A stretch of DNA of 64,000 nucleotides from Synechococcus sp. (GCA_047284725.1 JBJBEO010000001.1:2517550-2581549), one strand, 5' to 3'; counted from the first letter of the stretch, positions 20,333 through 60,157 are shown. The notes: generated by a model not told the origin, from the letters alone. A program made the numbers and translations.

Positions 20333-23300
20333 ATGTCTGCGCTTTTAGATCTTGGCTTCTTTGGTTCAAAGAAAAAGAATCATCTTCTCGACACTCTCGA
20401 CGGTCAGTTCGTTAATCCCAGCAATGCTCAATCTCGGTCTAATTTTGCTGTAAATAGTGAGATTGTAGATTTATCTTACCCTACTCTTTGTAGTTGTTCG
20501 TATTGTTGCGGCCAAGTAGCTACAACGAGTCATTTCGATAACAGGCCAGGTCAAGCTGATGATAAGATTCCGCCGTTTGTTGATGTAGGAAATGGCAAAA
20601 AAGTAGCCGAGCTTGATGCATACAACGCAGCAACTGACTACTCTTTTAGCAGCACATCTCAGCAGCAGTCCTGGAGTGAAGGCGAAAGTATCACGCTGAC
20701 CTGGAGCATTGTTCTGGATGGCACAACAATTTTTGCAGCCTATCCAGGCGAAGGACAAGAGACGGGAGGGAGCAATCTTCAGGCAAAACTGACCGCACTC
20801 TATGGAAGCGAGGAGATTTGGCTGTCTTTATTCCAGCAATCATTTGACCGAATATCATCGATCAGTGGCGTTAATTATGTTTATGTCGACTATGACGATG
20901 GCGCATCCATAGGTGGCACTAATAATACCGGGGTGGATGGAGTAAGGGCGGATATTCGCATTGGCGGTATAACAATAGACGGCGCTGGTGGGATTTTAGC
21001 TTACAATTATTTTCCCGATTACGGTGATATGGTTATAGATACTTCAGAGCTTGAAGGTCAAGGATATTTCACAAGCACGGGTTCAAATTCACTGGCTTTT
21101 AGGAATATGATCCAACATGAAGCTCTCCATGGCTTAGGAATTTCCCATACAGAAAGCTCTGATTCCAGTTTTCTCATGGAGCCATTCATTAATACAAGCT
21201 TTGATGGCGTTCAATACGATGACATCTCGGCTGTGCAGAGTCGGTATGGTGATGCCCTTGAGCAAGGTGCAGGAAATAACAGTTTTTCAACAGCATACGA
21301 TCTTGGCCTGGCGAGTTCCAGCTTGAGCATTGGTTTTGATTCCATTGATATGCGCGTTGAGCCTGATGAGGTCAGTTTTTACTCGATTCATAATGCCTCT
21401 GATGTTGATTATTTTTATTTCGGTATCAGCCAAGCCTCTATACTATCTCTCACGCTGACGCCTACTGGGCCTAGCTATCGACAATCACCTCAAGGAGGTG
21501 ATGAGTTTTTCTATGACGCCTCGAGTCAGAACAATCTTGGCTTTAATGTTTATGACTCCAGCCAAAATCTAATTGTAGAAGTTGACAATGGGTCGCTTGG
21601 TTTTCAGGATGCTTGGAGCAGTGATTTTGCTCTTGCCGGCAATTATTACGTAAAAATCTTTGGGACGTCTGGTGTGTTTGACACATACCAGAGTTATCAA
21701 TTTGATATTGCTTTAGAACCAGCGACTCCTAATCAATCACCAACAGCAAGCAATGATGATGTGCAGATACAGGAAGATACATCGGTTAGCATTGATGTTT
21801 TGTTGAATGATAGCGATCCAGATGCCGATATCCTCGTGATTTCAAGCTTTGACACGAATTCATTGCAGGGGGGGCAAGTTGTTCTCAATCAGGTCACTAA
21901 TGAGCTTGAGTATACCCCAGTCTTGAATTTTTTTGGTACAGATCAATTCACGTATCAAGTCAGTGATGGTAACGGTGGCTTCGACACTGCAACTGTTCAG
22001 ATTAATGTGCTCGCTGTCAATGACGATCCTGTTGCCAATAATGACACAGCCACAACAGAACAAGAAACTCCGGTCATCGTCAATGTTCTTGCCAACGATG
22101 AGGATGTAGATGGTGATGCATTAGAGCTGATGAGCACCTCAGAGCCGTTAAATGGGTCGGTATCCATTAGCAATGGAGAAGTTGTGTACACTCCCAATTC
22201 GGGTTTTACGGGTGATGATTCATTCACTTATATCGTGTCTGATGGTCTACTCAGCAGCTCTGCCGAAGTGACCATTACTGTTAATCCTATGAGCGAAGTG
22301 GTCACCGCTCTAGATGCTGAGCGAGTAGATGGTGATTTCGGTAATTACATTGAAAATACCAGTGTTGAAGGAACTTTTGTCAAAGGTGATGGAATTAGCG
22401 CAGTGCTTAGAGAGGAGATTCAGCCGGTCACTGGAGGGAGAAAGCCAAAAAACGGCAGTGTCTTAGATCGCGTTTGGGAATTTTCAGGGCTTAATTCAGC
22501 AACTTCCTTCACGGTTACTGCATCGCTTGATGGTTTCGATCAAGATGAGATCCAGTTCTCTTATTCAACGGATCTTTCTGGTGGATGGATCGATTTCTCG
22601 GCTATCCGAGTCAATTCATCCTCTTTGACCACCTATACACAAGAAGGCCTTTCCCTGTCGGGAACAGTGTATGTAAGAGCTGTTGACACTGACCGATCTC
22701 CATCCAATGGCAATAGCACGCCAGATCTTTCTGAACTTTCCATTGATTTTATGGGTTTTGAGCAGGTGAATGATCCCAGTAATGGTGGGCCCGGGTCTCT
22801 GACAGCCATCGGTGGAGATCCAGTCGTTGGTTCAACACTAGTCGCGCCTGAAGTGATTGGGGATCCAGATGGATTTACCAAGTATCTTGAATACAAGTGG
22901 TATGTCAGCGGTACTGAAGTAAAAACGTATGTTCCAGGTTCTGAGGGTAATCCAGATCTATTGGTTTCTGAAGATTATTTAGATTTAGGTAAAGAGATTA
23001 CTGTTGTAGTCAGATACTTAGATGGTGAAGGATACGAGGAGAGTGTGACATCCGAATCAGTGACAATTTCTCTCCCGGCTCCTGGTAATGTTATTGAATT
23101 CACCGCTGACAGAGATGAGTTGTTGGGAGTAGAAAATAGCGTCGATTTGTTTACGTTGAATAATCTGACTGACGCGCTTGTTGGCGGTGGCAGGAATCCA
23201 AGCACTGACAGCATTACTGGGCTTGAGCTCAGTTCAGATAAGTTGGATTTTACTTCTGCAAATCAAGCCGCAGACTGGAGGGGCGATGGAAGATATGTAG

Positions 23301-23521
23301 GTGATGCGCGAAGCCTCAAGAATCGTGATCTAGGGCGTTTGCTGACATCTTCGGCTTTTCAAGCAAACGATATTGTTGCATTTTCTGTGAGTGGTGACAA
23401 TCAATCGATTTATTTGGCTGTCAATGATCAATTCAATGGGTTTGATAACTCCACTGACGCCATTATAAGATTGATCGGCATTGAACAGTCAGATGTGAAT
23501 AATATTATGCTCGTAGCCTAA
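20333..23521 (+). CDS. Large multidomain M10/matrixin-type zinc metalloprotease with PPC-like, tandem Ig/cadherin-like and bluetail-like C-terminal domains
   Basis: HEALHGLGISH (HExxHxxGxxH), Met-turn FLMEP, GILAYNYFP, two NxxPxAxxD...YTP..F.G.D.FTY.VSDG repeats and C-terminal YLAVND..GF....DAII.L.G. Confidence 0.85.
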   Translation: MSALLDLGFFGSKKKNHLLDTLDGQFVNPSNAQSRSNFAVNSEIVDLSYPTLCSCSYCCGQVATTSHFDNRPGQADDKIPPFVDVGNGKKVAELDAYNAATDYSFSSTSQQQSWSEGESITLTWSIVLDGTTIFAAYPGEGQETGGSNLQAKLTALYGSEEIWLSLFQQSFDRISSISGVNYVYVDYDDGASIGGTNNTGVDGVRADIRIGGITIDGAGGILAYNYFPDYGDMVIDTSELEGQGYFTSTGSNSLAFRNMIQHEALHGLGISHTESSDSSFLMEPFINTSFDGVQYDDISAVQSRYGDALEQGAGNNSFSTAYDLGLASSSLSIGFDSIDMRVEPDEVSFYSIHNASDVDYFYFGISQASILSLTLTPTGPSYRQSPQGGDEFFYDASSQNNLGFNVYDSSQNLIVEVDNGSLGFQDAWSSDFALAGNYYVKIFGTSGVFDTYQSYQFDIALEPATPNQSPTASNDDVQIQEDTSVSIDVLLNDSDPDADILVISSFDTNSLQGGQVVLNQVTNELEYTPVLNFFGTDQFTYQVSDGNGGFDTATVQINVLAVNDDPVANNDTATTEQETPVIVNVLANDEDVDGDALELMSTSEPLNGSVSISNGEVVYTPNSGFTGDDSFTYIVSDGLLSSSAEVTITVNPMSEVVTALDAERVDGDFGNYIENTSVEGTFVKGDGISAVLREEIQPVTGGRKPKNGSVLDRVWEFSGLNSATSFTVTASLDGFDQDEIQFSYSTDLSGGWIDFSAIRVNSSSLTTYTQEGLSLSGTVYVRAVDTDRSPSNGNSTPDLSELSIDFMGFEQVNDPSNGGPGSLTAIGGDPVVGSTLVAPEVIGDPDGFTKYLEYKWYVSGTEVKTYVPGSEGNPDLLVSEDYLDLGKEITVVVRYLDGEGYEESVTSESVTISLPAPGNVIEFTADRDELLGVENSVDLFTLNNLTDALVGGGRNPSTDSITGLELSSDKLDFTSANQAADWRGDGRYVGDARSLKNRDLGRLLTSSAFQANDIVAFSVSGDNQSIYLAVNDQFNGFDNSTDAIIRLIGIEQSDVNNIMLVA

Positions 23522-28942: not shown

Positions 28943-28956
28943 GTAGCAGTTGCTAC
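28943..28956. promoter_or_regulatory. NtcA box upstream of the cnaT-like gene
   Basis: GTA-GCAGTTGC-TAC, perfect match, intergenic. Confidence 0.75.
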
Positions 28957-46581: not shown

Positions 46582-47073
46582 GTGTACGAACTTCTTTCCT
46601 ACGAACGCTTCCGCGATACGCCGTCGGTGCGGTTTTTTGATGTCACTGTTGCCAGCTCCAACGCTCGTGATTTAGTGATTCATTCCGGCCCCGCGGTCAG
46701 CCCACCGGATGATGCTGAGACGGGTGCCTGGCAGTTCTATCTGCATCCCCACCAGGAAGACAATCTGCTTGCAGCTGGTGGAGGCCGCACCTTTTATCTG
46801 GTCAATCTCTCCTGGGATGAGCCGTTTCACATCGTTCGTCTTGAAAGCGGAGGAGACATCCTGCGGATTCCCCCTGGCACATTTCATCGCTCTATTTCTG
46901 ATCCTGAGGGTTCCGTGGTGCTGAACCAGGCCGTGCGCGAGGCGGGAGTTTCCCTTGTGCGTGAATTCCGTGTCTACAACAGTGCACGCATTCCGGCGTT
47001 GATGGCGGCTACCTCGATCGACGCTCCCAAACCATTGCTCCATGGTGTGGAGCCCATTCTTCAGGCCGCCTGA
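46582..47073 (+). CDS. Cupin-fold hypothetical protein
   Basis: FYLHPHQEDNL and LRIPPGTFHRS resemble cupin motifs 1 and 2. Confidence 0.65.
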   Translation: MYELLSYERFRDTPSVRFFDVTVASSNARDLVIHSGPAVSPPDDAETGAWQFYLHPHQEDNLLAAGGGRTFYLVNLSWDEPFHIVRLESGGDILRIPPGTFHRSISDPEGSVVLNQAVREAGVSLVREFRVYNSARIPALMAATSIDAPKPLLHGVEPILQAA

Positions 47074-47957
47074 AGCTGTGGCTCCAGGGTGGTTTGGTTG
47101 GAACCTTCCTCGGTCACGCTGATGCACCAATCCAATGTGCTGCGGGCGTTGGCCGGTCCGCTGAAACTGCCGCTCACGGCTGCCGTGAGATCAGGGTTGG
47201 AGGAGGTGGCGAGCACCACATAGCGTTCATTCACTTCACGGCCTGCACTGGGGTCGAACCCCCGCCACCCTGCCCCTGGCAGGTACACCTCAGCCCAGGC
47301 ATGAAGGTCGTAGTGCTCCGGAGCAGGATCGAGTAGTTGGTAGCCGCTCACAAACCGCGCCGGCAGTCCTACGACGCGGCAGCAGGTGACCATCAGCATC
47401 GCCAGATCCCGGCAGGAGCCGATCCTTTCCCTCAGCGTTCGACCCGCTGGCCAGGCGGGACCAACGTGGCGCTGGGTGTATTTCACACGGTCTTGAATCA
47501 GATCGATCAGTTGGTGGAGGAAGGCCAGGGTCTGTTGGTCGCTCCCCATCAGTGCCTCCTGGGTGAGCTCGATGGCAGACGGTTCGTGTTGGCCATTGGG
47601 GAGCCATCCCTCCAAAGCGCCGAGGAGATCCTGGTTGAGGTGGCCCCGGGGATAGGGCAGAGGCGGCTCAATGCCGTTGAAGCAGGTGTCCAGAGCAGGA
47701 GCTTCACGGGTTTCCACCCAACTGTTGGCTTCAAAGCAGAGACGGTCGGTGCTGCCGCAAAACCTGAGTCTGAGAATTTCGTCACCGCTGGCTGCCAGGA
47801 GTTCCCGTTGTTGGCTTGGTTCCGGCAGGACCAAAAGGGTGTGGTTGAGCAACCGTTGAAACCCCTGTCCCCGTGGCTTGAGGCAAAGGCGGTGGTCCCC
47901 CAGGGTCACCGGGGTGTCGTAGCGATACGTCAGGCGGTGAACGATGTGGGCACGCAT
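47061..47957 (-). CDS. Transglutaminase-like protein with N-terminal bacterial transglutaminase domain
   Basis: H.L.YRY N-terminus; triad GSCRD (Cys), HAWAEVY (His) and GWRGFDP (Asp); ARFVSGY. Confidence 0.92.
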   Translation of the reverse strand: MRAHIVHRLTYRYDTPVTLGDHRLCLKPRGQGFQRLLNHTLLVLPEPSQQRELLAASGDEILRLRFCGSTDRLCFEANSWVETREAPALDTCFNGIEPPLPYPRGHLNQDLLGALEGWLPNGQHEPSAIELTQEALMGSDQQTLAFLHQLIDLIQDRVKYTQRHVGPAWPAGRTLRERIGSCRDLAMLMVTCCRVVGLPARFVSGYQLLDPAPEHYDLHAWAEVYLPGAGWRGFDPSAGREVNERYVVLATSSNPDLTAAVSGSFSGPANARSTLDWCISVTEEGSNQTTLEPQLQAA

Positions 47958-48937
47958 AGGGGTGTGTTGGAGGGACCGGAGGGCGTCGCTGTTGCCTCGG
48001 GCGAGGTGAAGTAGCGGTCGTGAATGAGGCCGTGGAGCCGGTTGAGATCCACTTGCAGTTGGTCAATCGCTTCGTGCAGCCCTGTGCTGATCAGGGTGTC
48101 GATCCGTACGTAACTCCAGCGGGCCAGCAATTGACCGCGCAGACAATCGAGGTCATCGGGAGGCCCCTGCACAGGCTGTTGCTGAAGTTGTGCCAGCGTG
48201 CCGTTGATGCCTTGCAGGCAGAAGCGCACCGACCGAGGGAAGATGGGATCCAGCAACAGGAAGTCGGCAACGGAGGCCGGCGTGATCGCCTGCTGCTGGC
48301 TTTGGCGATACATCTGATAAGCACCGGCCGTGCGCAGGACCGTGATCCACTGCAGCTCGTCGAGCACGCCTCCGACGTCATCCGGGCTCGGCAACAGCAG
48401 GAAGTACTTCATGTCAAGGATGCGCGACGTTTTGTCGGCCCTTTCGATCAGACGACCCAGCTGACTGAACAACCAGCTCACATCGCGGCTCAGGGTGGCA
48501 TCCGTGATGCCGTACACCATCTGGCATCCCCGCCGAATGATGCGCAGTTGCTCCTGCACCGGTTCGCTCCAGATCGCTTCGCCAGTCTGGAGACTCCAAT
48601 GCAGATCATTCAGTTGCTCCCACATTTCGCTGGTGATCACGTCTCGGATCTGGCGTGCGTTTTCGCGGGCGATGGCGATGCAGCTGACGATGCTGTTCGG
48701 GTTGTCACGGTCGTGGAGCAGAAACCTCAGCACATCCCCAGGTGTGCCGGCTGGATAGGCCTGATCGAACCGTTGACGATCAGCGGTGGCGTCAACGAGA
48801 GGCAGCCATGGTTCGGCACTGCCTGGTGGGCAGTCGAGGGCCATCGCTTCACTCACTTCCAGAAACCGGGAAATGTTTTCAGCCCGTTCCAGATAGCGAT
48901 GGATCCAATAGAGCGAATCGGCAACGCGGCTCAGCAC
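47930..48937 (-). CDS. Alpha-E domain protein (DUF403)
   Basis: MLSRVADSLYW..RYLERAEN, ARENAR, GRLIERADKT.R and FPRSV. Confidence 0.92.
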   Translation of the reverse strand: MLSRVADSLYWIHRYLERAENISRFLEVSEAMALDCPPGSAEPWLPLVDATADRQRFDQAYPAGTPGDVLRFLLHDRDNPNSIVSCIAIARENARQIRDVITSEMWEQLNDLHWSLQTGEAIWSEPVQEQLRIIRRGCQMVYGITDATLSRDVSWLFSQLGRLIERADKTSRILDMKYFLLLPSPDDVGGVLDELQWITVLRTAGAYQMYRQSQQQAITPASVADFLLLDPIFPRSVRFCLQGINGTLAQLQQQPVQGPPDDLDCLRGQLLARWSYVRIDTLISTGLHEAIDQLQVDLNRLHGLIHDRYFTSPEATATPSGPSNTPLCVPTSFTA

Positions 48938-50406
48938 GGCACAGCCTCCCGGTTGCGCTCTGCCACCACCTGTTGCTCATCCACGATCCAGGTGTCTTTG
49001 CAGCCACCCCCCTGGGAGGAGTTCACCACCAGTGATCCCCGTTTGAGCGCCACCCGGGTGAGGCCTCCCGGACTGACCCAACTGTTGCGACCCCGCAGCA
49101 CATAGGGCCGCAGATCCACATGGCAGGGATACAGCTCACCGTCGCTCAGGGAGGGAACGGTGGAGAGTTGCAGGGTGGGTTGCGCGATGAAGTTGCGCGG
49201 GTTGGCTCGGATCTGTGCGTCGAAATGGGCGATTTCAGAGCGGCTGGCCTGGGGGCCGATCAGCATCCCGTAGCCGCCGGCTTCGGCAACGGATTTCACC
49301 ACCAGGTGTTCGAGGTTGGCCAAGACGAACGTGCGGTCGCGTTCCCGTGAGCACAGATAGGTGGGGACGTTCTCGATGATCGGCTCTTCGTTGAGGTAGT
49401 AGCGGATCATGGCCGGCACATGGGCATAGATCAGCTTGTCGTCGGCAACCCCGGTGCCCGGTGCATTGGCGATGGCGATGCGACCCTGGCGCATCACGTC
49501 GATCAGACCAGCCACCCCAAGCATCGAATCACCACGGAACACCGTCGGGTCGAGGAAGTCGTCATCGATGCGCCGATAGATCACATCCACGCCTTGGAGG
49601 CCATTGGTGGTGCGCATCCAGACCCGGCCGTTGTCGCAGATCAGATCGCGCCCCTCCACCAGGGGAATGCCCATCTGTTGGGCCAGGTAGCTGTGTTCGA
49701 AATAGGCGCTGTTGTACACGCCTGGTGTCAGCAGGACCACCCGTGGGGCATCACTCCAGGGAGCCATGTCCTGCAGGGTGCGCAGCAGGTGGCAGGGGTA
49801 GGCATCGATCGGTTGCACCGTGCGACCTTCGAACAGGCTTGGGAACAACCGCTTCATCACCTGGCGGTTTTCCAGGAAATAGGCAACACCAGAAGGGCAA
49901 CGCAGGTTGTCCTCCAGCACACGCCAGGTGCCTTCGCCATCGCGGATCAGGTCGAGTCCGGAGATTTGGCACCAGCGGTTGAGGGGGACCTGCACGCCCT
50001 GCATCTCAGGCCGCCAGCCTGAGGAGCTCTCCACGTCTTCCCTGGGAATGACTCCATCCCGCAGGATCTGTTGTCCGCTGTAAACGTCGACCAGAAAACA
50101 ATCGATTGCTTCCAACCGTTGCAGCAGTCCGCGTTCCAGTCGCTCCCATTCCTGGCTGCCGATCAGCCGGGGCAGGGGATCGAACGGCAGGATCCGTTCG
50201 CCACTGTGCAGATCACCGCCATTGAGGCGAAAGGTGGCGCCCAGACGCTTGAGTAAATGGCTGGCTGCAGCGTGGTTGCGGTTCAGTTCGATGATCCCCA
50301 TCTGGCCCAGGGATGAGAGCAGCGGCTGCAACGATGGCCTCGGAGCAGCGTTGTCTTGGCAGAAATATTCGTCGTAGCCGGCCGTGGGCCTGTAGTTGGA
50401 AAACAT
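48931..50406 (-). CDS. Circularly permuted type 2 ATP-grasp protein
   Basis: VLEDNLRCPSGVAY, NSAYFEH, YRRIDDDFLDP, VADDK, VDLRP and VVNSSQGGG.KDTW. Confidence 0.93.
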   Translation of the reverse strand: MFSNYRPTAGYDEYFCQDNAAPRPSLQPLLSSLGQMGIIELNRNHAAASHLLKRLGATFRLNGGDLHSGERILPFDPLPRLIGSQEWERLERGLLQRLEAIDCFLVDVYSGQQILRDGVIPREDVESSSGWRPEMQGVQVPLNRWCQISGLDLIRDGEGTWRVLEDNLRCPSGVAYFLENRQVMKRLFPSLFEGRTVQPIDAYPCHLLRTLQDMAPWSDAPRVVLLTPGVYNSAYFEHSYLAQQMGIPLVEGRDLICDNGRVWMRTTNGLQGVDVIYRRIDDDFLDPTVFRGDSMLGVAGLIDVMRQGRIAIANAPGTGVADDKLIYAHVPAMIRYYLNEEPIIENVPTYLCSRERDRTFVLANLEHLVVKSVAEAGGYGMLIGPQASRSEIAHFDAQIRANPRNFIAQPTLQLSTVPSLSDGELYPCHVDLRPYVLRGRNSWVSPGGLTRVALKRGSLVVNSSQGGGCKDTWIVDEQQVVAERNREAVPC

Positions 50407-50457
50407 CCTTTGTTCTGATGCCCGATGCATCCAATCGGTCGGATGAACCCACTCCTG

Positions 50458-50531
50458 GTTTCAGTTGCTACACATTCCGCAATTTCGCTCACATCGCAGT
50501 GCATCACTGCTGTTTTGGTATCTGTAGACAC
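50458..50531. promoter_or_regulatory. Two NtcA-like boxes in the ATP-grasp/symporter divergent promoter
   Basis: GTT-TCAGTTGC-TAC (50458-50471) and GTA-TCTGTAGA-CAC (50518-50531). Confidence 0.6.
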
Positions 50532-50617
50532 CGCTTGTATCGGTGAGTGCTTGGGGGTTCGGCCCGCATTTGCTTAGGTGTCTGCAAGTCACTGAGGCAG
50601 GTTCAGTGAGTGAACTG

Positions 50618-50731
50618 ATGTGGGCGCGCTTGATCTTTGCCATGGGGGCAGTGGTCACAGGGGCAACCGTGGCGATGATCGTGCGCGGTCATCTGTACTG
50701 GCAGCACCGGGATTCAAGCCATGTCCGCTAG
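50618..50731 (+). CDS. Candidate 37-aa single-TM micro-protein overlapping the symporter start
   Basis: MWARLIFAMGAVVTGATVAMIVRGHLYWQHRDSSHVR; alternative GTG at 50606. Confidence 0.5.
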   Translation: MWARLIFAMGAVVTGATVAMIVRGHLYWQHRDSSHVR

Positions 50732-52151
50732 CGCTGCACCGTTTCTCCAGCCTGGTGTCGCCTGGGCCCTGGTGGTGGTGTTCGCCGTGCTCTGGATCGC
50801 ATTGGGGATCGCCTGGGGCCGTCGGGGCAAAGGCGATGCCGATGACTACATGCTGGCTGGTCGCAACATCGGTTTAGCCCTCAGCACCGCCACCTTGATG
50901 GCCTCCTGGGTGACCGGGAACACCACCCTTCTGGCGCCTGAATTCGGGTACAAAACCGGTCTCTGGGGCATGTTCAGCTATGCCCTGGCAGGTTTGGGGC
51001 TGATCCTGTTTGCGCCTTTGGCGCTGCGGATCAAGCAACTGATGCCCTTTGGCCGCACCAGCGGCGATTTCATTCGCCTTCGCTACGGCCGGCTGGCCTG
51101 GTCGGTGTTCATGCTGATCACGGCGGTTTACACCCTGGGTTTCCTGATGACTCAGGCCATGGGCGCAGGCTTGTTGCTCCAAGCGTTGTCGGGGTTTGAC
51201 TACCACGTGGGAATGGTGGTTGTGCTTGGTGTGGCAACCCTTTACACCTTGTTCGGCGGGATGCGGGCTGTGATCGGCACCGACTTCATCCAATCCCTGT
51301 TGATCATGGTGCTCCTGGCCGTGGTGGCGGTGCTGGCGTTTCAGCAGTTCCCGATGCCCGAGGTCCATGCCGCCTTGAGCCGCGAGCATCCCGATCGCCT
51401 CGACCTGTTGCTGCCTGCGGGGCTCCTGATCGCCTGGAACTCAGCTCTGTTCTCGATGGGCGAGGTGTTTCACAACAACATCTGGTGGTCGCGCGTGTTT
51501 GCGTCCCGTCGTTCGGTGGTGATGGCGTCATTCGTGCTGGGTGGTCTGGCCTGGATGAGCGTGCCGATGGTGACGGGCTCCATCGGGCTGGTCGCATTGG
51601 CCCGGAATCTGCAGCTGGATCAGGTCAACATGGTGTTTCCGGTGATGGCGGCGGATCTGCTTGGTGCCGGTGGGGCCGCACTGGTGTTTGTCGTGGTGTT
51701 CGCCTCGTTGACCTCCACCTTGGACTCCCTGCTCGCGTCCACCGCTGATCTGCTCGCGGAGGATGTCTACTTCCGCTTGTTGCGCCCCCAGGCCAGCGAT
51801 GCCCAGCTCAAGCAGGCAGCGAGGCTGCTGGTGGTGGGCCTGGCTGTGGTGACCTTGGCGCTCTCCTGGCCGCGGCTGGATTCCCTCGCTTCCGTGTTGT
51901 TCTTCACCGGTGCGCTCGTGGCATCCACCGTGTGGCCTGTGGCGTGTGGGCTGTATTGGCGCACGGCCAACCGTCGAGCAGCGATTGTCGCGATGCTCAG
52001 CGGTAGTGCCGTGGGGTTGACGGCCTATGGGCTGATCGCTCCGTACTGCGCGGCGGTGTTTTCGGCTGCGGTATCGGCGCTGGTGATGGTGGTGGGTAGC
52101 CAGTGCTGGCCTGAACGGTTTGATTTCGTTTTATTGAAGGAGGAGGCATGA
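50721..52151 (+). CDS. Sodium:solute symporter, DUR3/urea-transporter-like
   Basis: DYMLAGRNIG, MASWVTGNT, YTLFGGMRAVIGTDFIQ and ASLTSTLDS; about 13 TM. Confidence 0.9.
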   Translation: MSASAAPFLQPGVAWALVVVFAVLWIALGIAWGRRGKGDADDYMLAGRNIGLALSTATLMASWVTGNTTLLAPEFGYKTGLWGMFSYALAGLGLILFAPLALRIKQLMPFGRTSGDFIRLRYGRLAWSVFMLITAVYTLGFLMTQAMGAGLLLQALSGFDYHVGMVVVLGVATLYTLFGGMRAVIGTDFIQSLLIMVLLAVVAVLAFQQFPMPEVHAALSREHPDRLDLLLPAGLLIAWNSALFSMGEVFHNNIWWSRVFASRRSVVMASFVLGGLAWMSVPMVTGSIGLVALARNLQLDQVNMVFPVMAADLLGAGGAALVFVVVFASLTSTLDSLLASTADLLAEDVYFRLLRPQASDAQLKQAARLLVVGLAVVTLALSWPRLDSLASVLFFTGALVASTVWPVACGLYWRTANRRAAIVAMLSGSAVGLTAYGLIAPYCAAVFSAAVSALVMVVGSQCWPERFDFVLLKEEA

Positions 52152-52297
52152 ACGTTGTGATGCCGATGCTGGCGACCTTGATCGATGCCACCTGGTTCAC
52201 GATCGTGCTTGCGGGCAGTCAAGTGGCGTTGGTGGCATCCGTGGTGGTGTTGCTGGTGATCTGGTGGGTGGAGTGGCGTAAGGGCCGGGTGTGGTGA
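52148..52297 (+). CDS. 49-aa single-TM micro-protein coupled to the symporter (not in the ORF track)
   Basis: AGGAGGAGG RBS and ATGA overlap; MNVVMPMLATLIDATWFTIVLAGSQVALVASVVVLLVIWWVEWRKGRVW. Confidence 0.75.
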   Translation: MNVVMPMLATLIDATWFTIVLAGSQVALVASVVVLLVIWWVEWRKGRVW

Positions 52298-52320
52298 AGC
52301 AGGCACGCCGGGACTATTCA

Positions 52321-52334
52321 GTAGCAGTTGTTAC
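52321..52334. promoter_or_regulatory. NtcA box upstream of the carbamoyltransferase operon
   Basis: GTA-GCAGTTGT-TAC, perfect match; weaker GCA-CTCGTTGC-TAC at 52384-52397. Confidence 0.75.
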
Positions 52335-52467
52335 GAGATTGGCCGTTCACTTCGAAGAAAGCGGCGTTTTTCTGGCCTGATGGGCACTCGTTGCTACAGG
52401 GTGAAACAAGCCTCCGGTTGCTTATGCGGTTTTTCGGAGTGTCGGTACGCAAGCCTGGAGGTCTGTT

Positions 52468-53580
52468 TTGGTAACTCAGCCGGCCGTCCTCGACTTGGAT
52501 GACGAGCAATTGCGTTTTGCTCCACTAGGCCCTGACGTGTACGGCAGAACGCATCCGCAGACCCTGCTGACCACGATTGAGGAAGACGCGGAACCGCTGT
52601 TGGATCTGGTCGGCCAGCACGTGGTCTCGATTCAGACGTTTCGACCGCAAACGCTGTTGCAGTTGTTTCGATTGGCGGCGAAGTACGAAAGCAACCCAGG
52701 GCGTTACATCACCCATAGCGTTCCGCTGCGGGGCAAGATCCTGATCAATGCGTTCTACGAGCCCAGCACGCGCACGCGTCTGTCCTTCGATAGTGCCTGG
52801 CATCGGCTCGGTGGCAGCTCGATCAACATCACAGACCGTGCCACCACAGGCATTGCGAAGGGCGAGTCGCTAGAAGATATCGCCCATATGTTCAACAACT
52901 ACGGCGATTGCGTCGTGCTGCGTGACGGCGATGCCGATGCTGTGTATGCGATGTCGCAGACGTTGCGGATTCCGATCATCAACGCCGGCAATGGCATCGA
53001 TGAACATCCCACCCAGGCGATGGCGGATCTGTTCACGATCCTGAAGTGGCGCCCAGCTCTCGTGGAGCAGCAGGTGGCTCCGGAGCAACGGATTCGCATC
53101 GGTGTGATCGGAGTGCCAGCTCGGATGCGCACGGTGCGATCACTGCTGCGGATTCTGGCCAAGTTTCCGCAGATGGTGGAGGAAGTGGTGGTGATCCACG
53201 CCTCGGAAGCCAATCCTGAAGAGTCGTTATTTGATCCCGGTCAGCGTGAGGAGTTGCGTGAGGCGGGCTTGAAGTTGCGCATCAGCACCGATCTGCTGGC
53301 GGAACTTCCCGATCTCGACGTCACCTACATCAATGCCATCGCCTGGGTGGGTGACAGCTTTGAAGTGCATGGTGACCAGTTCAGGCTCACCAAGGATCTT
53401 CCCTACAAACCAGGATCGATTGTTCTGCATCCGCTGGCGCGGGGGGCGGAGTTGAGCACCTGCATGGATGACACCCCCCAGAACTGGTATTTCAGTCAGG
53501 CCCGGGGTGCGGTGTTTCTGCGAATGGCCCTGCTCACTTGCATGGTGGATCGGGCCGAACGGGTCATGGATGTCGTCTGA
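52468..53580 (+). CDS. Aspartate carbamoyltransferase-like paralogue with divergent substrate site
   Basis: FYEPSTRTRLSF, AKGES, NAGNG..EHPTQ, RTVRS and HPLAR; TRVQKER-type loop absent. Confidence 0.85.
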   Translation: MVTQPAVLDLDDEQLRFAPLGPDVYGRTHPQTLLTTIEEDAEPLLDLVGQHVVSIQTFRPQTLLQLFRLAAKYESNPGRYITHSVPLRGKILINAFYEPSTRTRLSFDSAWHRLGGSSINITDRATTGIAKGESLEDIAHMFNNYGDCVVLRDGDADAVYAMSQTLRIPIINAGNGIDEHPTQAMADLFTILKWRPALVEQQVAPEQRIRIGVIGVPARMRTVRSLLRILAKFPQMVEEVVVIHASEANPEESLFDPGQREELREAGLKLRISTDLLAELPDLDVTYINAIAWVGDSFEVHGDQFRLTKDLPYKPGSIVLHPLARGAELSTCMDDTPQNWYFSQARGAVFLRMALLTCMVDRAERVMDVV

Positions 53581-53589
53581 GTCGGGCTT

Positions 53590-55614
53590 ATGTGTGGAAT
53601 CGGTGGCGTCTTCAATGCTGACCAGCAACAGGCGGTTGACCCGCAGCTGCTGGTCAACATGGCGGCGATTCAGTCCCATCGCGGCCCGGATGGGTTCGGG
53701 GTCGAAACCCTTGATGAGGCGGGCGTGGGTTTCTGTCATGCGCGCCTCTCAATCATCGATCTGAACGAGTCGCGAGCCCGTCAGCCCTTCCTCACCGATG
53801 ACGGTCAGGTGCTGATGGCCCATAACGGTGAGTTTTACGACTTTCAGCGCATTCGCGCCGACCTCACGGCCCAGGGGGTGCGGTTCAGTTCCAAAAGTGA
53901 TTCAGAGATTCTGTTGCGTCTCTATCAGCGCCAGGGGCTTGAGGCGACCCTGCCGCTGCTGCGCGGGGAATTTGCTTTTGCCCTGTTTGATCGAGCCCAG
54001 GACTGCTTGTATCTCGTGCGCGATCGCTTCGGCATCAAGCCCCAGTACTGGGCGATGACGCCCCAGGGCCTGGTGTTTGGCTCTGAGCTCAAGGTGCTGT
54101 TTGCCCATCCGGCAGTGGAACGACGTTTCACCTCGGAGGGCCTTTTTCATCAGTTGATGCAAACGATGGTCCCCGGCACAACCGCGTTTGCTGGGGTCCA
54201 TCAGGTGAAGCCCGGGCATGTGCTCAAGGTGCAGCGGACGGATGGCCGGCTTGAGGTGTCCGAGTGGACCTACTGGGATGTGAATTTCCCGCGAAAACAC
54301 GAGCGGGATCGCAGCCTCACGGAGGCCGATCACATCACGGCTGTACGGGCTGCCCTCCTGGAGGCGGTTGAGTTGCGGATGGTGGCGGATGTGCCGGTGG
54401 GGTGTTACCTCTCCGGTGGCATCGACAGTTGTTCAATCCTTGGTTTGGCGTCTGCGGTGAGTCAGTCGCCGGTGAAGGCCTTCACCATCGGTTTCGATGA
54501 TGCCCGCTACGACGAATCGCCGATCGCCCGGGAGATGGCCGATGCCACCGGAGCTGAGCAGGATCTGATGCGCCTTTCAGGGCGTGAGTTGTATGGACAC
54601 ATGGAGCGCACGCTCTGGCATGCCGAACGGACGATCTACAACACGCTGGCGGTGGCGAAATTTCTGATGAGCCGCCATGTCAACAGCGTTGACTACAAGG
54701 TGGTGATGACCGGTGAAGGCTCTGACGAGCTGTTTGGTGGTTATCCCGCTTTCCGGCGCGACATGTTCCTGCACGGTTTGGATGACCTCCCCGAAGGGGA
54801 ACGCCAGGCCTGGGAAACCCTGCTGCAGCAATCGAACTCCCTGGTGCAGGGCGCGATGCTGGCCGCCGATCAGGTGGATGACCCCGACCTCGATGCCGTG
54901 GTGGGGTTCACCCCCAGTTGTTTGCAGCCCTGGCTGGCATGTGCTCCATTGGTGCCCGCCTTGCTGGCCGATGAACATCGCCAGGCGCTCGTTGGCTATT
55001 CCCCCGGTCAGGCGATCGCGGCTCAGCTGGACCCTGATCAGCTCGATGGTCGCCACGCTTTGGATAAGGCGCAATACGTCTGGATCAAGACGATGTTGGA
55101 AGGCCAGATCCTCACCTGGGGTGGGGACAGGGTTGACATGGCCAACTCCATGGAGGCGCGGCCCGCATTCCTCGATCACCATCTCGCAGCAGCGGCGGTT
55201 CAGGTGCCGCCGGAGTTGCGGATCAAGGGAAAAACGGAGAAGTACGTCCTGCGTGAGGCCATGGCCGGGCTTCTCCCTGAGGTGCTCTACAAGCGTGAGA
55301 AATTTGCCTTCATGGCGCCTCCGGCCCACACCGAACCGGAGAAGTGGGCTCAGATGAAGCAGTTGGCGGATGACTACCTCAGCCACCAGGCGATCGATGA
55401 CGCCGGCTTGCTCAGCAAGGAGGGAGTGGGTGCCCTGTTTGCGCGTCACGATGATCCAGCCACCACCGACGCTGATCGTGTGCAGATGGACGCCGTGATC
55501 AACCACCTGCTCGGCGTTCAGATGCTGCATCGCATGTTCGTGGCCGCGGATGTGCCGGCGCAGGCCCAGGCGGAAGCCGAGCGTCTCGGCTGGCGGGTGC
55601 CCGTGACGGCCTGA
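53590..55614 (+). CDS. AsnB-family glutamine-dependent amidotransferase
   Basis: MCGI Ntn nucleophile, HRGPD, HNGEFY, RDRFGIKP, LSGGIDS, GEGSDELFGGY and EARPAFLD. Confidence 0.92.
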   Translation: MCGIGGVFNADQQQAVDPQLLVNMAAIQSHRGPDGFGVETLDEAGVGFCHARLSIIDLNESRARQPFLTDDGQVLMAHNGEFYDFQRIRADLTAQGVRFSSKSDSEILLRLYQRQGLEATLPLLRGEFAFALFDRAQDCLYLVRDRFGIKPQYWAMTPQGLVFGSELKVLFAHPAVERRFTSEGLFHQLMQTMVPGTTAFAGVHQVKPGHVLKVQRTDGRLEVSEWTYWDVNFPRKHERDRSLTEADHITAVRAALLEAVELRMVADVPVGCYLSGGIDSCSILGLASAVSQSPVKAFTIGFDDARYDESPIAREMADATGAEQDLMRLSGRELYGHMERTLWHAERTIYNTLAVAKFLMSRHVNSVDYKVVMTGEGSDELFGGYPAFRRDMFLHGLDDLPEGERQAWETLLQQSNSLVQGAMLAADQVDDPDLDAVVGFTPSCLQPWLACAPLVPALLADEHRQALVGYSPGQAIAAQLDPDQLDGRHALDKAQYVWIKTMLEGQILTWGGDRVDMANSMEARPAFLDHHLAAAAVQVPPELRIKGKTEKYVLREAMAGLLPEVLYKREKFAFMAPPAHTEPEKWAQMKQLADDYLSHQAIDDAGLLSKEGVGALFARHDDPATTDADRVQMDAVINHLLGVQMLHRMFVAADVPAQAQAEAERLGWRVPVTA

Positions 55615-55676
55615 ATTCTTTGATCAGGTTGAAACCGTTGCATTGACGACAGGCGTTTCTTCTGGCTCCAGCGAGA

Positions 55677-56999
55677 GTGAATTTCCCTTTGAAGGAAAGG
55701 TCACGACCCTTGCCTCAGTTGCTGTCCAGCCGTCATCAGGTTTCTGTTCCAGCCGATCAGATTGGCTGCTTGGCCACGGCCCCTGATCGTGGTCGTTTGA
55801 TCGGAACCCTTGATCGCATGGCCTCCATCGGCCGTCAGGCCGACGGAGCGGTTTGTCGCCGCGGGTTCAGCGCCGCCGATGTGGAAGGCCGCGAGCAGGT
55901 GGCCCTGTGGATGCGTGAAGCCGGGATGGAGGTGCGGGTGGATCCCGCTGGCAACTTGATCGGTCGATTGGAGGGTCTTCAGCCGCACTTGCCTTCGCTG
56001 GTGACCGGCTCCCATCTCGACACCGTGCCGACGGGTGGTCGTTTCGATGGCGTGTTGGGAGTGCTGGCCGGCCTTGAGGCGGTGCGCTCTCTTGGTGATC
56101 AGAACCTGCGACTGCGTCACCCCCTTGAAGTGATCGCTTTCGCTGATGAAGAGTCGACGATGGTGGGTTGCAAAGGGATGGCCGGCACCGCGTCAGCCGA
56201 TCCTCAGGCCTATGCCACCAGTAATGGGGAGCCCATTGCTGTGAATCTCGAGCGCATCGGGGGCCACTGGCCTTCCCTGGCATCGGCTGCCCGCAGGGAT
56301 CGGGCCATGGCCGCTTTCCTTGAGCTGCATGTGGAACAGGGTGCTGTGCTGGAGCACCGCGGTGACGTTATTGGCGTCGTGCAGGGGATTGTTGGTCAGC
56401 GGCGGTTCAGTATCCATGTGAACGGACAGGCCAATCACGCTGGAACCACTCCCATGGCGATGCGTCAGGACGCTCTGGCCACGGCTGCCCAGGTGGTCTT
56501 GGCGGTGCAGGCGATGGCCGCTGATCATCCCGGCGATCCTGTGGCCACGGTCGGCAAGCTCGATGTCTGGCCCAATGCCGCCAACGTTGTTCCCGGTTCT
56601 GTGACCCTCACCGTGGATCTACGCGATCTTGATCCAGCTGTGTTGGATGAACTTGTCACCACCCTGATGGAGCGCCTCGAAGGGATTGGTGAAGCGTCTG
56701 GCTGCACCATCGAGCTCGAACCCCAGTTTTCGGTTGACCCCACGCCCGCCGATTCCAGGGTTATCGAGACCCTTGAGCAGGTGGCTCAGGATCTTGGTTT
56801 CAGCAACAGCAGGCTTCCCAGCCGTGCCAGCCATGACGCCCAAGAGCTGGGCCGACGCTGGCCGATGGGGATGATTTTCGTTCCCAGTCGGGGTGGCCTG
56901 AGTCATTCGGCCGCTGAATACACCAGCGATGAGCAGTGCTGGGCAGGCACGGCCGTGCTTCTGGAAGCCCTCCTGAGGCTGGATCGTGGGTTGGGATGA
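55677..56999 (+). CDS. M20 Zn hydrolase, N-carbamoyl-L-amino acid/allantoate amidohydrolase family; start uncertain
   Basis: GSHLDTV..GG.FDG.LG, DEE, ELHVEQG, NHAGTTPM, SHDA and GLSH. Confidence 0.9.
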   Translation: MNFPLKERSRPLPQLLSSRHQVSVPADQIGCLATAPDRGRLIGTLDRMASIGRQADGAVCRRGFSAADVEGREQVALWMREAGMEVRVDPAGNLIGRLEGLQPHLPSLVTGSHLDTVPTGGRFDGVLGVLAGLEAVRSLGDQNLRLRHPLEVIAFADEESTMVGCKGMAGTASADPQAYATSNGEPIAVNLERIGGHWPSLASAARRDRAMAAFLELHVEQGAVLEHRGDVIGVVQGIVGQRRFSIHVNGQANHAGTTPMAMRQDALATAAQVVLAVQAMAADHPGDPVATVGKLDVWPNAANVVPGSVTLTVDLRDLDPAVLDELVTTLMERLEGIGEASGCTIELEPQFSVDPTPADSRVIETLEQVAQDLGFSNSRLPSRASHDAQELGRRWPMGMIFVPSRGGLSHSAAEYTSDEQCWAGTAVLLEALLRLDRGLG

Positions 57000-57670
57000 C
57001 CTTCTCGATCGTTGCCAGAGACCCGAGTAACGGCCGATTCGGTGTGGCAGTCGCCACCTGCCACCTCGCAGTTGGCTCAACGGTCCCCCATATTCGTTCT
57101 GGGGTCGGTGCCGTGGCGACGCAAGCCCACACCAATCCTTATCTGGGCATCTGTGGCCTCGAGCGTCTTGAACAGCGTGCGGATGCGGAGGTCGTGCTTC
57201 AGAGTCTTCTGGCTGACGATCCCCACCGCGACCGCCGGCAGTTTCATTTGATTGATCTCCAGGGACGCACGGCCTGTTGGACCGGCACCGATTGTGGTGG
57301 CTGGGCTGGTCATCGCCATCATCAAAACGTATCCGTGGCGGGCAATTATCTGGTTGGCGAACAGGTTTTGACGGTCATGGAGCAGGCCTTTTTTGACAGT
57401 GACGCCACCTGGAAACTGGGGCGGCGTTTGATGCATGCCCTTCAGGCAGGAGAAGCCGCTGGCGGTGATCAGCGCTTGCCGAGCGCAACATCGGCCGCTC
57501 TCCAGATCAGTGGCGAAGCGGCATTCCCTTTGCTCGATTTACGCGTTGATTTTCGTGATGCTGCCGTGGCCGAACTGATGCAGGTCTATGAGCGCAGTCA
57601 GGATCTCTGGGCCCAGCAATGGCGCGATCAGTTATCGGAAGCGCCGGTGCTGAATCGGCTCGTGGCCTAA
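56996..57670 (+). CDS. DUF1028 family Ntn-hydrolase-like protein
   Basis: MTFSIVARD, GAVATQA, AGN.L, AGGD.R, SAAL and DLRVD; ATGA overlap. Confidence 0.88.
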   Translation: MTFSIVARDPSNGRFGVAVATCHLAVGSTVPHIRSGVGAVATQAHTNPYLGICGLERLEQRADAEVVLQSLLADDPHRDRRQFHLIDLQGRTACWTGTDCGGWAGHRHHQNVSVAGNYLVGEQVLTVMEQAFFDSDATWKLGRRLMHALQAGEAAGGDQRLPSATSAALQISGEAAFPLLDLRVDFRDAAVAELMQVYERSQDLWAQQWRDQLSEAPVLNRLVA

Positions 57671-57695
57671 GACTTCAACGGATGCCAGGTTCATG

Positions 57696-58447
57696 TCAAT
57701 CAACCAATTGTTGATCGAACAGATCAAACACGTTGGTGAAGAATGTTCTGCCTTGTTGTTGGATCTCCGGCTCGAGTCGCTGCCAATGGCTGCGCAGTTG
57801 AGACGGGCCTTCACTCCCTAATGCACCCACCACATAGCCGTGGTCTTCCTGGATCCACCGTTCCAGGGATTCGCTGCTGAGTTCCCAGTGACACTGCACG
57901 CCGATCGCGTGCTGTCCGATGCGGAACACCTGCTCGGGGCAGTGCAGGGAGGAGCCCAGCAGGGTGGCTTCTGCGGGCAGTCGCGCCCGATCACCGTGCC
58001 AGTGCAGAACGGCTTCGCTCGGATTCAATCCTTGCAGCAACGGCTCATGCTCAGGTGGCATCCACCAATGGATGGCGCCAAAGCCCACTTCTTTGAGCGG
58101 TTGTTGGGGCTCCCCCACCTGAAGGGGCTCCACTCGCCCGCCAACCGCCACCGCCAGCAGCTGGGCTCCAAGGCAGATCCCCAGCATGGGTCTGCGCTGT
58201 TCGTGCCAGCTGCGGATCCAACTGAGCTCGCTGTTCAGCCAGGTCATGCCGGGCTTGTGGCGTTCATTCACCCCCATGGGGCCACCCAGCACCAGGGCGA
58301 CTGTGCTCGCGCAGGTGGCGGGATCGGGGAAGGGATCACCGCGATCGGGGCGAATGGTGTGAATGGCCATCCCTCGTTCCCGGGCGAGGGCGGCGATCAC
58401 TCCTGGACCCTCCCGGTCCACGTGTTGAACCACCAGGAGCCTCTGGG

Positions 58448-58451
<4 letters not shown>
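57696..58451 (-). CDS. Stand-alone class I glutamine amidotransferase
   Basis: LGGPM, GICLGAQ (Cys), WHGD and QCHWE (His-x-Glu); GTGA overlap with ureC. Confidence 0.88.

Positions 58452-60157
<1,706 letters not shown>

Follow-up and report, generated by a model that had tools for sequence, protein, structure and literature searches.

The window analysed here is a stretch of 64,000 nucleotides from Synechococcus sp. (GCA_047284725.1, JBJBEO010000001.1:2517550-2581549), whose genome of 2.58 Mb lies on a single contig, and this text concerns the gene block at positions 50,618 to 57,670 of that window, which probably encodes a pathway that makes an N-carbamoyl amino-acid amide, takes it back up and recycles it. 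A first-pass annotation of this DNA had described a co-directional block of seven genes, and the seven open reading frames (ORFs) are indeed there, every one on the + strand (positions are those of the window):

50606/50618-50731, +: mini1, a single-helix membrane protein of 37-41 aa
50721-52151, +: symporter of the SSS family, DUR3 (urea-type) branch (PF00474; Cyanorak ureP/DUR3, CK_00001890)
52148-52297, +: mini2, a 49-aa single-helix membrane protein ending in [DE]W[RK]xGxxW
52468-53580, +: paralogue of aspartate transcarbamylase (ATCase), here called pseudo-ATCase (pyrB2; PF02729 and PF00185; CK_00001891)
53590-55614, +: AsnB-family glutamine-dependent amidotransferase (asnB; TIGR01536, 422 bits; CK_00001822)
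55677-56999, start uncertain, +: amidohydrolase of the M20 hydantoinase/carbamoylase family (pydC; TIGR01879, 401 bits, above the cut-off; CK_00001892)
56996-57670, +: DUF1028 protein with an Ntn-hydrolase annotation and Thr at position 2 (PF06267; CK_00001893)

The spacing had been called tight, which is true of the ATGA overlaps (symporter/mini2 and M20/DUF1028) and of the 9-bp gap between the pseudo-ATCase and AsnB genes, but not of the gaps of about 170 nt between mini2 and pseudo-ATCase and of at least 62 nt between AsnB and M20.

The nearest relatives of solved structure of the pseudo-ATCase are ATCases, and the ESM Atlas returned only clusters named ATCase. The protein scores under the cut-off of all NCBIfam models for ATCase and ornithine transcarbamylase (OTCase), with 181 bits against a cut-off of 237 for TIGR00670. 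In ATCase, R167 and K84 position the alpha-carboxylate of the substrate, R229-x-Q231 anchors the beta-carboxylate of aspartate, and the RxQxER motif has been reported in all known ATCases (PMC4581275). The pseudo-ATCase retains its motifs for carbamoyl phosphate and the counterparts of R167 and K84 (S100-T-R-T103, K131, R152, H180-P-T-Q183, R221 and H321-P-L-A are kept), and has A290-I-A292 where ATCases have R229/Q231. In 355 partly redundant sequences of its family, of which 240 are database proteins and 115 are ORFs from the loci, RxQxER is never seen, whereas N-x-I-x-W and HPLAR each occur in 345 and STRTR in 349. The signature of ornithine and putrescine carbamoyltransferases (DxxxSMG, HCLP) is likewise missing, the corresponding residues being NAIAWVG and HPLA. 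The window's genome has three genes of the ATCase/OTCase fold, namely ArgF, PyrB and the pseudo-ATCase. An ordinary PyrB/AsnB identity was rejected. From these motifs, we predict that the pseudo-ATCase is an amino-acid N-carbamoyltransferase for a substrate other than aspartate. Its closest relatives, 85-95% identical, are marine Synechococcus records, and one related genome (G549) carries two copies, at C1:2535827-2536927 and C1:1682796-1683869, which are 80% and 74% identical to that of the window. An AlphaFold model of a soda-lake-type homologue was not used, given its mean pLDDT of 67 and a poor active-site region.

The AsnB-like protein carries Cys2 and the SGGIDS and TGEGSDE motifs, and is predicted to amidate an alpha-carboxylate. 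The best match of the M20 protein in the PDB is the L-carbamoylase 3n5f (E 9e-83), beta-ureidopropionases are also among its structure matches, and the protein is predicted to be an N-carbamoyl-amino-acid hydrolase. The DUF1028 protein is a predicted amidase, whose place in gammaproteobacteria is taken by an isochorismatase-type cysteine hydrolase. Asp-Lys-Cys is the catalytic triad of this hydrolase type, and all three motifs are kept in 63 of 73 copies.

To follow these genes across genomes, we tallied neighbourhoods by tblastn in 202 loci (79 named GTDB records, 80 metagenomes, 23 sampled Gammaproteobacteria and 20 from one halophilic family), which are related to one another and in part redundant; not counted were the fragment L080, short duplicates of loci and the window's own genome. 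Similar gene sets had been expected in related genomes, and this expectation was borne out: AsnB is present in 179 of the 182 loci that extend 300 nt or more downstream (all but L078, L221 and L155, the last with only 305 nt), and among the 109 loci flanked by 4.2 kb or more on each side, AsnB and M20 occur in 107, the symporter in 73 and a predicted amidase in 106, either DUF1028 (45) or the cysteine hydrolase (61). The two amidases are mutually exclusive, occurring together in 0/202 loci. In the Cyanobium-type loci L056-L062, L074 and L079, AsnB and M20 are separated by the DUF1028 gene, which has the inverted orientation. Identity between cyanobacterial and gammaproteobacterial proteins is 54-62% for the carbamoyltransferase, 64-67% for AsnB and 37-39% for M20; this low M20 identity suggests that a pair of carbamoylase and amidase may have been recruited twice, as a product would require if both a ureido and an amide group had to be taken off it.

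Adjacency to carbamate kinase is a mark of catabolic transcarbamylases (PMC6022934). Such a kinase is near only 3/202 loci, and none was found in the window's genome or in genomes G661, G660, G707 and G126, so the direction of the pathway looks biosynthetic. The three carbamate kinases (L146:12891-13823, L147:11886-12797 and L194:4770-5735) lie one or two genes downstream of AsnB on the same strand; they could supply or consume carbamoyl phosphate, or be chance neighbours.

The pseudo-ATCase gene was detected in 23/399 sampled Gammaproteobacteria (about 6%; centre not counted, one genome unscored), and it is present in 59/250 genomes of the window's family and in 0/286 sampled cyanobacteria of other families. 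A quick tree, with SH-aLRT support only and long outgroup branches, groups the cyanobacterial copies in a single clade (98), nested within a larger one (97) that also holds Thiothrix, Idiomarina, Pseudoalteromonas and Emcibacter; this provides a lead toward a transfer from proteobacteria to cyanobacteria. Records L016, L026 and L080, labelled Gammaproteobacteria, Trichodesmium and Halieaceae, hold copies of Synechococcus or Prochlorococcus type and are probably binning contamination.

N-carbamoyl-glutamine amide (CGA), known as a compatible solute since its description in 1991, has been reported from Ectothiorhodospira marismortui (= E. mobilis) (PMC1224877). Three proteins in the database clusters of the pseudo-ATCase are named E. 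mobilis; other named members come from E. magna, E. shaposhnikovii, E. marina, E. lacustris, Thioalkalivibrio and Nitrosococcus, as well as Ectothiorhodosinus mongolicus and Thiorhodospira sibirica. According to Imhoff 2020, E. magna, Ets. mongolicus and Trs. sibirica are without betaine or ectoine synthesis, and CGA is one candidate solute for the last two; these three species are represented here by a named protein rather than by a named locus. The first-pass annotation had called for a co-occurrence search that included CGA producers. One protein of genome G661 has 100% identity with E. mobilis P0340, a match at the level of the species only. Its locus (L211) reads sucrose synthase (divergent)-MarR-M20-cysteine hydrolase-pseudo-ATCase-AsnB, without symporter. 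G661 has three genes of the ATCase/OTCase fold including the pseudo-ATCase, and no match to NodU/CmcH, so that the pseudo-ATCase is the only spare carbamoyltransferase found there. The AsnB of this locus is 66% identical to that of the window with zero gaps, and the NAIAW residues of the 240s loop are the same in the window enzyme and the E. mobilis enzyme. In the family of G126, the gene occurs in 49/55 genomes, the six without it being small (1.6-2.4 Mb, completeness not given), and the 20 loci of this family have MarR in 18, sucrose synthase in 11 and MscS in 6, compared with 7, 1 and 3 of the 23 broader gammaproteobacterial loci. Our literature search, which misses most subscription journals, found no genes assigned to CGA.

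The distribution of pyrB2 over salinity points to salt. By our own count of Table S7 in PMC9361551, the gene is present in 1/67 freshwater, 10/17 brackish and 32/48 marine picocyanobacteria and, within subcluster 5.2, in 1/60 freshwater versus 6/11 brackish strains; the sole positive freshwater strain, ATX 6A2, carries glucosylglycerol genes, as does just one other strain from fresh water (PMC9361551). Synechococcus WH7803 and WH8102 are both among the positive strains.

The solved structure nearest to the symporter is DUR3 (E 4e-30), followed by SGLT1 (E 2e-11). The symporter is absent from 34 of the 107 well-flanked loci with AsnB, including L211 and Prochlorococcus loci, and pseudo-ATCase and AsnB stay together in these. 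High-light Prochlorococcus (L025-L050) show the order pseudo-ATCase-AsnB-M20-DUF1028 without symporter, and their neighbours vary. Two small proteins accompany the transporter. The strict mini2 pattern was found in 91/135 loci in which the symporter gene adjoins the pseudo-ATCase gene, in both cyanobacteria and gammaproteobacteria, and a model of the symporter-mini2 complex scored 0.84 against 0.00 for the best control, with at least 96% of contacts agreeing between runs and a partner pLDDT of at least 77. The mark used for such models is reached by 116/157 solved complexes and 2/215 mismatched pairs, the controls not having been chosen as membrane helices. The model supports binding, and mini2 is a probable accessory subunit of the symporter. 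The other small protein, mini1, is conserved in Synechococcus/Cyanobium loci. In gammaproteobacteria, the symporter gene is preceded by that of a protein of about 160 aa (F5; e.g., L071:1917-2414 and homologues) with a signal peptide, a beta-rich domain that is FN3-like by eye and a C-terminal helix, which has no Pfam or NCBIfam match and never occurs without the symporter. A profile of F5 matches the mini1 position in cyanobacterial loci (E 2e-5 to 1e-2), and mini1 is its sole, weak match in the window's genome (E 0.11); mini1 is probably a truncated counterpart of F5, resembling its C-terminal helix.

The NtcA consensus is GTA-N8-TAC, and a perfect box had been claimed for this block. It is present, together with several imperfect sites (no strand assigned):

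52321-52334: perfect NtcA-type box GTAGCAGTTGTTAC, fitting GTA-N8-TAC, upstream of the carbamoyltransferase gene
52384-52397: one-mismatch NtcA-like site in the gap between mini2 and pseudo-ATCase
50458-50471: one-mismatch NtcA-like site GTTTCAGTTGCTAC in the divergent promoter region upstream of mini1
50518-50531 and 50537-50550: two more one-mismatch NtcA-like sites upstream of mini1

Perfect GTA-N8-TAC sites number 77 in the genome, so that 0.005 would be expected in the 171-nt gap that holds the box; the window contains 6, against 1.9 expected, and the five others are in the nitrogen island at 28943, 40027, 44793, 61807 and 63693. The perfect box is inside the block, between mini2 and the pseudo-ATCase gene, and not ahead of it, and there are therefore probably two promoters. 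The one-mismatch sites upstream of mini1 may serve the block or the divergent ATP-grasp operon to its left; similar sites are found about 260 and 200 nt upstream of the symporter gene in several Synechococcus loci. In the 240 nt upstream of the carbamoyltransferase gene, a site with at most one mismatch was found in 41/42 Synechococcus/Cyanobium loci (shuffles: mean 12.4, maximum 22; perfect sites 7 vs 0.43) and in 29/30 Prochlorococcus loci (shuffles: mean 18.8, maximum 25; perfect sites 11 vs 1.22), an excess that is overstated because the tested loci are kin. In Prochlorococcus loci L025-L050, the site TGTAGTTAT..G[TC]ACA is conserved some 90 nt upstream. NtcA-activated promoters have a -10 box about 22 nt downstream of the site. 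The pattern GTA.{8}TAC.{20,24}TA...T has zero matches in the window, and a sigma-70 scan gave 0 promoter-like sites in 50300-57800. Among sequencing runs, the best share of the region's words was 0.16, in mostly probable DNA, and the literature search found no expression or functional data on the cluster genes; PMC11851481 and PMC13645077 are silent on them, and an Antarctic asnB paper says nothing of carbamoyl compounds. Of the claim that the block is NtcA-controlled, what holds is that the motif is conserved in related loci; it is a motif only, and the gammaproteobacterial copies of the cluster carry a MarR gene instead of an NtcA-type box.

Based on these data, we propose the following model. 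The pseudo-ATCase would transfer the carbamoyl group of carbamoyl phosphate to the alpha-amine of a neutral amino acid, probably Gln, whose still free alpha-carboxylate would be held by the R167/K84 equivalents and whose side chain would enter the pocket without R229/Q231. The AsnB-like enzyme would then amidate this carboxylate with ATP and Gln. For breakdown, the amidase (DUF1028 here, the cysteine hydrolase elsewhere) would strip the amide first, and the M20 enzyme would then free the amino acid together with CO2 and NH3. Leaked or external solute would be recaptured by the symporter of DUR3 type and the two small membrane proteins that partner it. The ancestral role would be that of a compatible solute; in Synechococcus, where the module sits in a nitrogen island with NtcA-type boxes in front of it, it probably has a second use as a nitrogen store or a scavenged nitrogen source. 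The pairing of building and stripping functions proposed at first pass is supported, as far as sequences can tell, by the loss of the aspartate motif beside an intact carbamoyl-phosphate site, an AsnB gene that is almost always adjacent, unrelated amidases exchanged beside M20, a carbamate kinase that is almost never near, the operon in the genome that encodes the E. mobilis protein, and the tracking of salinity by pyrB2. Overall, we judge it likely that the block makes, takes back up and recycles a solute, an N-carbamoyl amino-acid amide, under NtcA-like control that may activate or repress. That the compound is CGA itself comes close to an even call without quite reaching it. More tentative still, and somewhat doubtful as a whole, is the full proposal that the operon is the missing CGA pathway, with a new glutamine-specific carbamoyltransferase, a DUR3-type symporter with small-protein subunits, a proteobacterial origin and NtcA control.

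Several points weigh against the synthesis of a CGA-like solute. Because loci and strains are related, the tallies overstate independence. Two loci are exceptions to the pairing with AsnB: L078 has a pseudo-ATCase in a genome without AsnB orthologue (best 36%), and in L221 (G707:C4) the pseudo-ATCase stands alone, a 65% AsnB orthologue lying about 700 kb away on the same contig. The former (L078:5905-12858, from a SAR324 record) has a long-branch pseudo-ATCase with NSIIW, and the genes after it are those of an MFS-HEAT-cNMP protein, an enzyme with an amidase signature and a TauD-like protein; this is possibly a different pathway. The link to the CGA producer is at the species level, and G661 is a draft of many contigs, in which other carbamoyltransferases may merely not have been found; it also has a separate NAGGN-type AsnO, which could amidate instead, so that the amidating enzyme is not fixed by exclusion. 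The window enzyme is 62% identical to that of E. mobilis and belongs to another subclade of the quick tree, and the carbamoylated amino acid may thus differ between the two. No report of CGA in a cyanobacterium was found in the literature search. The cluster is not needed in seawater, given that 16/48 marine strains are without pyrB2 (PMC9361551 Table S7) and most Prochlorococcus are without the cluster, and an asnB cluster was scored in 4 freshwater strains of subcluster 5.3 without pyrB2 (PMC9361551). Finally, the cluster is enriched in warm, Fe-replete water depleted of N and P (Doré et al. 2023), in which a solute with four nitrogens would be a costly osmolyte; in Prochlorococcus, the same study noted it in the Red Sea.

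The alternative that survives best overlaps with the model and differs in product and purpose: the same chemistry would have a different acceptor, be it Asn, Gly, Ala or doubly amidated Glu, or the product would be a purely NtcA-governed nitrogen store without osmotic role. The change to A-I-A-W in the pocket excludes aspartate-type binding only, which leaves room for other acceptors, but the NAIAW residues shared with the E. mobilis enzyme and the gap-free AsnB alignment at 66% speak for a common one. A nitrogen store is consistent with the position of the block in a nitrogen island, the NtcA-like sites in 41/42 and 29/30 related loci and the enrichment in N-depleted waters, and the window's genome already has a glucosylglycerol-phosphate synthase, which, like the NtcA-type boxes, argues against a purely osmotic role; the near-absence of the gene from freshwater strains (1/67) is hard to explain by a store alone. 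We regard this alternative as unlikely, and infer that a dual role, as a solute when nitrogen allows and as a reserve or scavenged source when it does not, would fit both sets of observations.

Less probable again is catabolic scavenging, in which an imported ureido compound would be cleaved by the pseudo-ATCase running in reverse (phosphorolysis), as in the ureidoglycine carbamoyltransferase Rxyl_2847, with the hydrolases freeing ammonia and AsnB re-assimilating it. In its favour, the only pseudo-ATCase tested so far is catabolic (Barba et al. 2013, PMC4016543), the symporter belongs to the DUR3 branch, the block adjoins urease, and carbamate kinase lies downstream in L146, L147 and L194. The kinase is, however, near only those 3/202 loci and is not found in the window's genome; in addition, an M20 carbamoylase would duplicate a catabolic transcarbamylase, and the symporter is missing in 34/107 loci where pseudo-ATCase and AsnB persist. 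A catabolic role of this type was rejected as the principal reading. An alternative pathway of pyrimidine biosynthesis or recycling (Doré et al. 2023), with PyrB2 making carbamoyl-aspartate and PydC acting as beta-ureidopropionase, has the published annotation, the solved ATCases nearest to PyrB2 and the beta-ureidopropionases among the M20 matches on its side, but it fails the motif test (R229/Q231 absent in 355/355 sequences; 181 vs 237 bits), canonical PyrB is present in the window's genome and in all 132 strains of the PMC9361551 table, and no dihydroorotase or dihydropyrimidinase is among the annotated recurring neighbour families (no search aimed at these two enzymes was made), all of which renders it highly improbable.

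The block had been placed between nar and ure genes. This is correct on the right, where a class I glutamine amidotransferase-like gene (57696-58451, -) overlaps the end of ureC, convergent with the block and kept in several Synechococcus loci; the immediate left neighbour is a divergent operon of circularly permuted ATP-grasp, alpha-E and transglutaminase genes (47061-50430, -), and the NarK-family transporter and moaA are further left, beyond it. This operon adjoins the block in many Synechococcus loci, and the upstream region with the NtcA-like sites is common to both. An Rfam scan of the window matched only the 5' ureB sRNA at 59716-60002 (+), antisense to the urease genes, and no riboswitch in the block. 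An ORF of 1062 aa (20333-23521, +) lies in a lower-GC part of the window. A search of a plasmid collection gave no match at E 1e-50, and 7 pattern matches in viral contigs gave 0 confirmed.

Should the full CGA proposal hold, the pool of dissolved organic nitrogen would have a hidden part, an unrecognised solute with four nitrogens that is made and traded by many Synechococcus of the ocean and by some Prochlorococcus, and transcarbamylases would gain a new substrate, DUF1028 a function, and the pyrB2, asnB, pydC and ureP annotations a correction. Since one published table places the gene in about two thirds of marine Synechococcus in culture, and since about 6% of sampled Gammaproteobacteria (23/399) have it, the metabolite could be of importance to nitrogen storage and cross-feeding in the sea.

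The cluster had been presented as undescribed. It is in print twice under other readings, neither of which was tested. Barba et al. 2013 (PMC4016543) define a marine subgroup of pseudo-ATCases by the STRT, HPTQ, HPLA and AIA/SIA motifs, which the window enzyme matches, and by a synteny that the window shares, with a Na+ symporter on one side, an N-carbamoyl-amino-acid hydrolase nearby and the paralogue beside a genuine pyrB. They list Synechococcus WH8102 and Nitrosococcus oceani in this group, which is subgroup 3 in their text, with the motifs given to 'pseudo-ATCase 1' in Table 1. In the parts of that paper available to us, the marine group is given no function and the downstream gene is named 'putative asparaginase'. 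Doré et al. 2023 (PMC10119275) describe the same gene set, ureP/DUR3, a small membrane protein, pyrB2, asnB, pydC and an Ntn hydrolase, as SynCAG_003 / ProCAG_007 in island Syn_GI119; their account differs in proposing a pyrimidine pathway and, in the text available, draws no tie to salinity, CGA or the gammaproteobacterial operon. Rxyl_2847 (Barba et al. 2013) is comparable as a tested pseudo-ATCase with a non-aspartate ureido substrate, and differs in being catabolic, beside carbamate kinase and allantoinase, with other 240s-loop and HxLP motifs, a context absent here. Likeness to DUR3 urea transporters is by sequence to DUR3 structures only (E 4e-30). CGA has exactly the structure that a carbamoyltransferase and an amidotransferase would make from Gln, and the species producing it has the gene family, in an operon (L211) that differs from that of the window in having no symporter.

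The closest analogue is the system for the osmolyte N-acetylglutaminylglutamine amide (NAGGN), asnO-ngg plus a peptidase, in which the amine is capped and the carboxylate amidated by an AsnB-family enzyme. Both combine an N-capping enzyme, an AsnB-family amidotransferase and a hydrolase in one cluster (here in 107/109 well-flanked loci). The cap there is an acetyl group plus a peptide bond, and here a carbamoyl group from a transcarbamylase. The NAGGN system itself was rejected, since the window AsnB scores 301 against the AsnO cut-off of 570 (TIGR03104) and no adjacent ngg (GNAT plus ATP-grasp) is in the block, the divergent ATP-grasp belonging to the circularly permuted family; a true AsnO is encoded separately in four Ectothiorhodospira-family genomes. 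By analogy, the predicted pathway is one that works like the NAGGN system without being a member of it.

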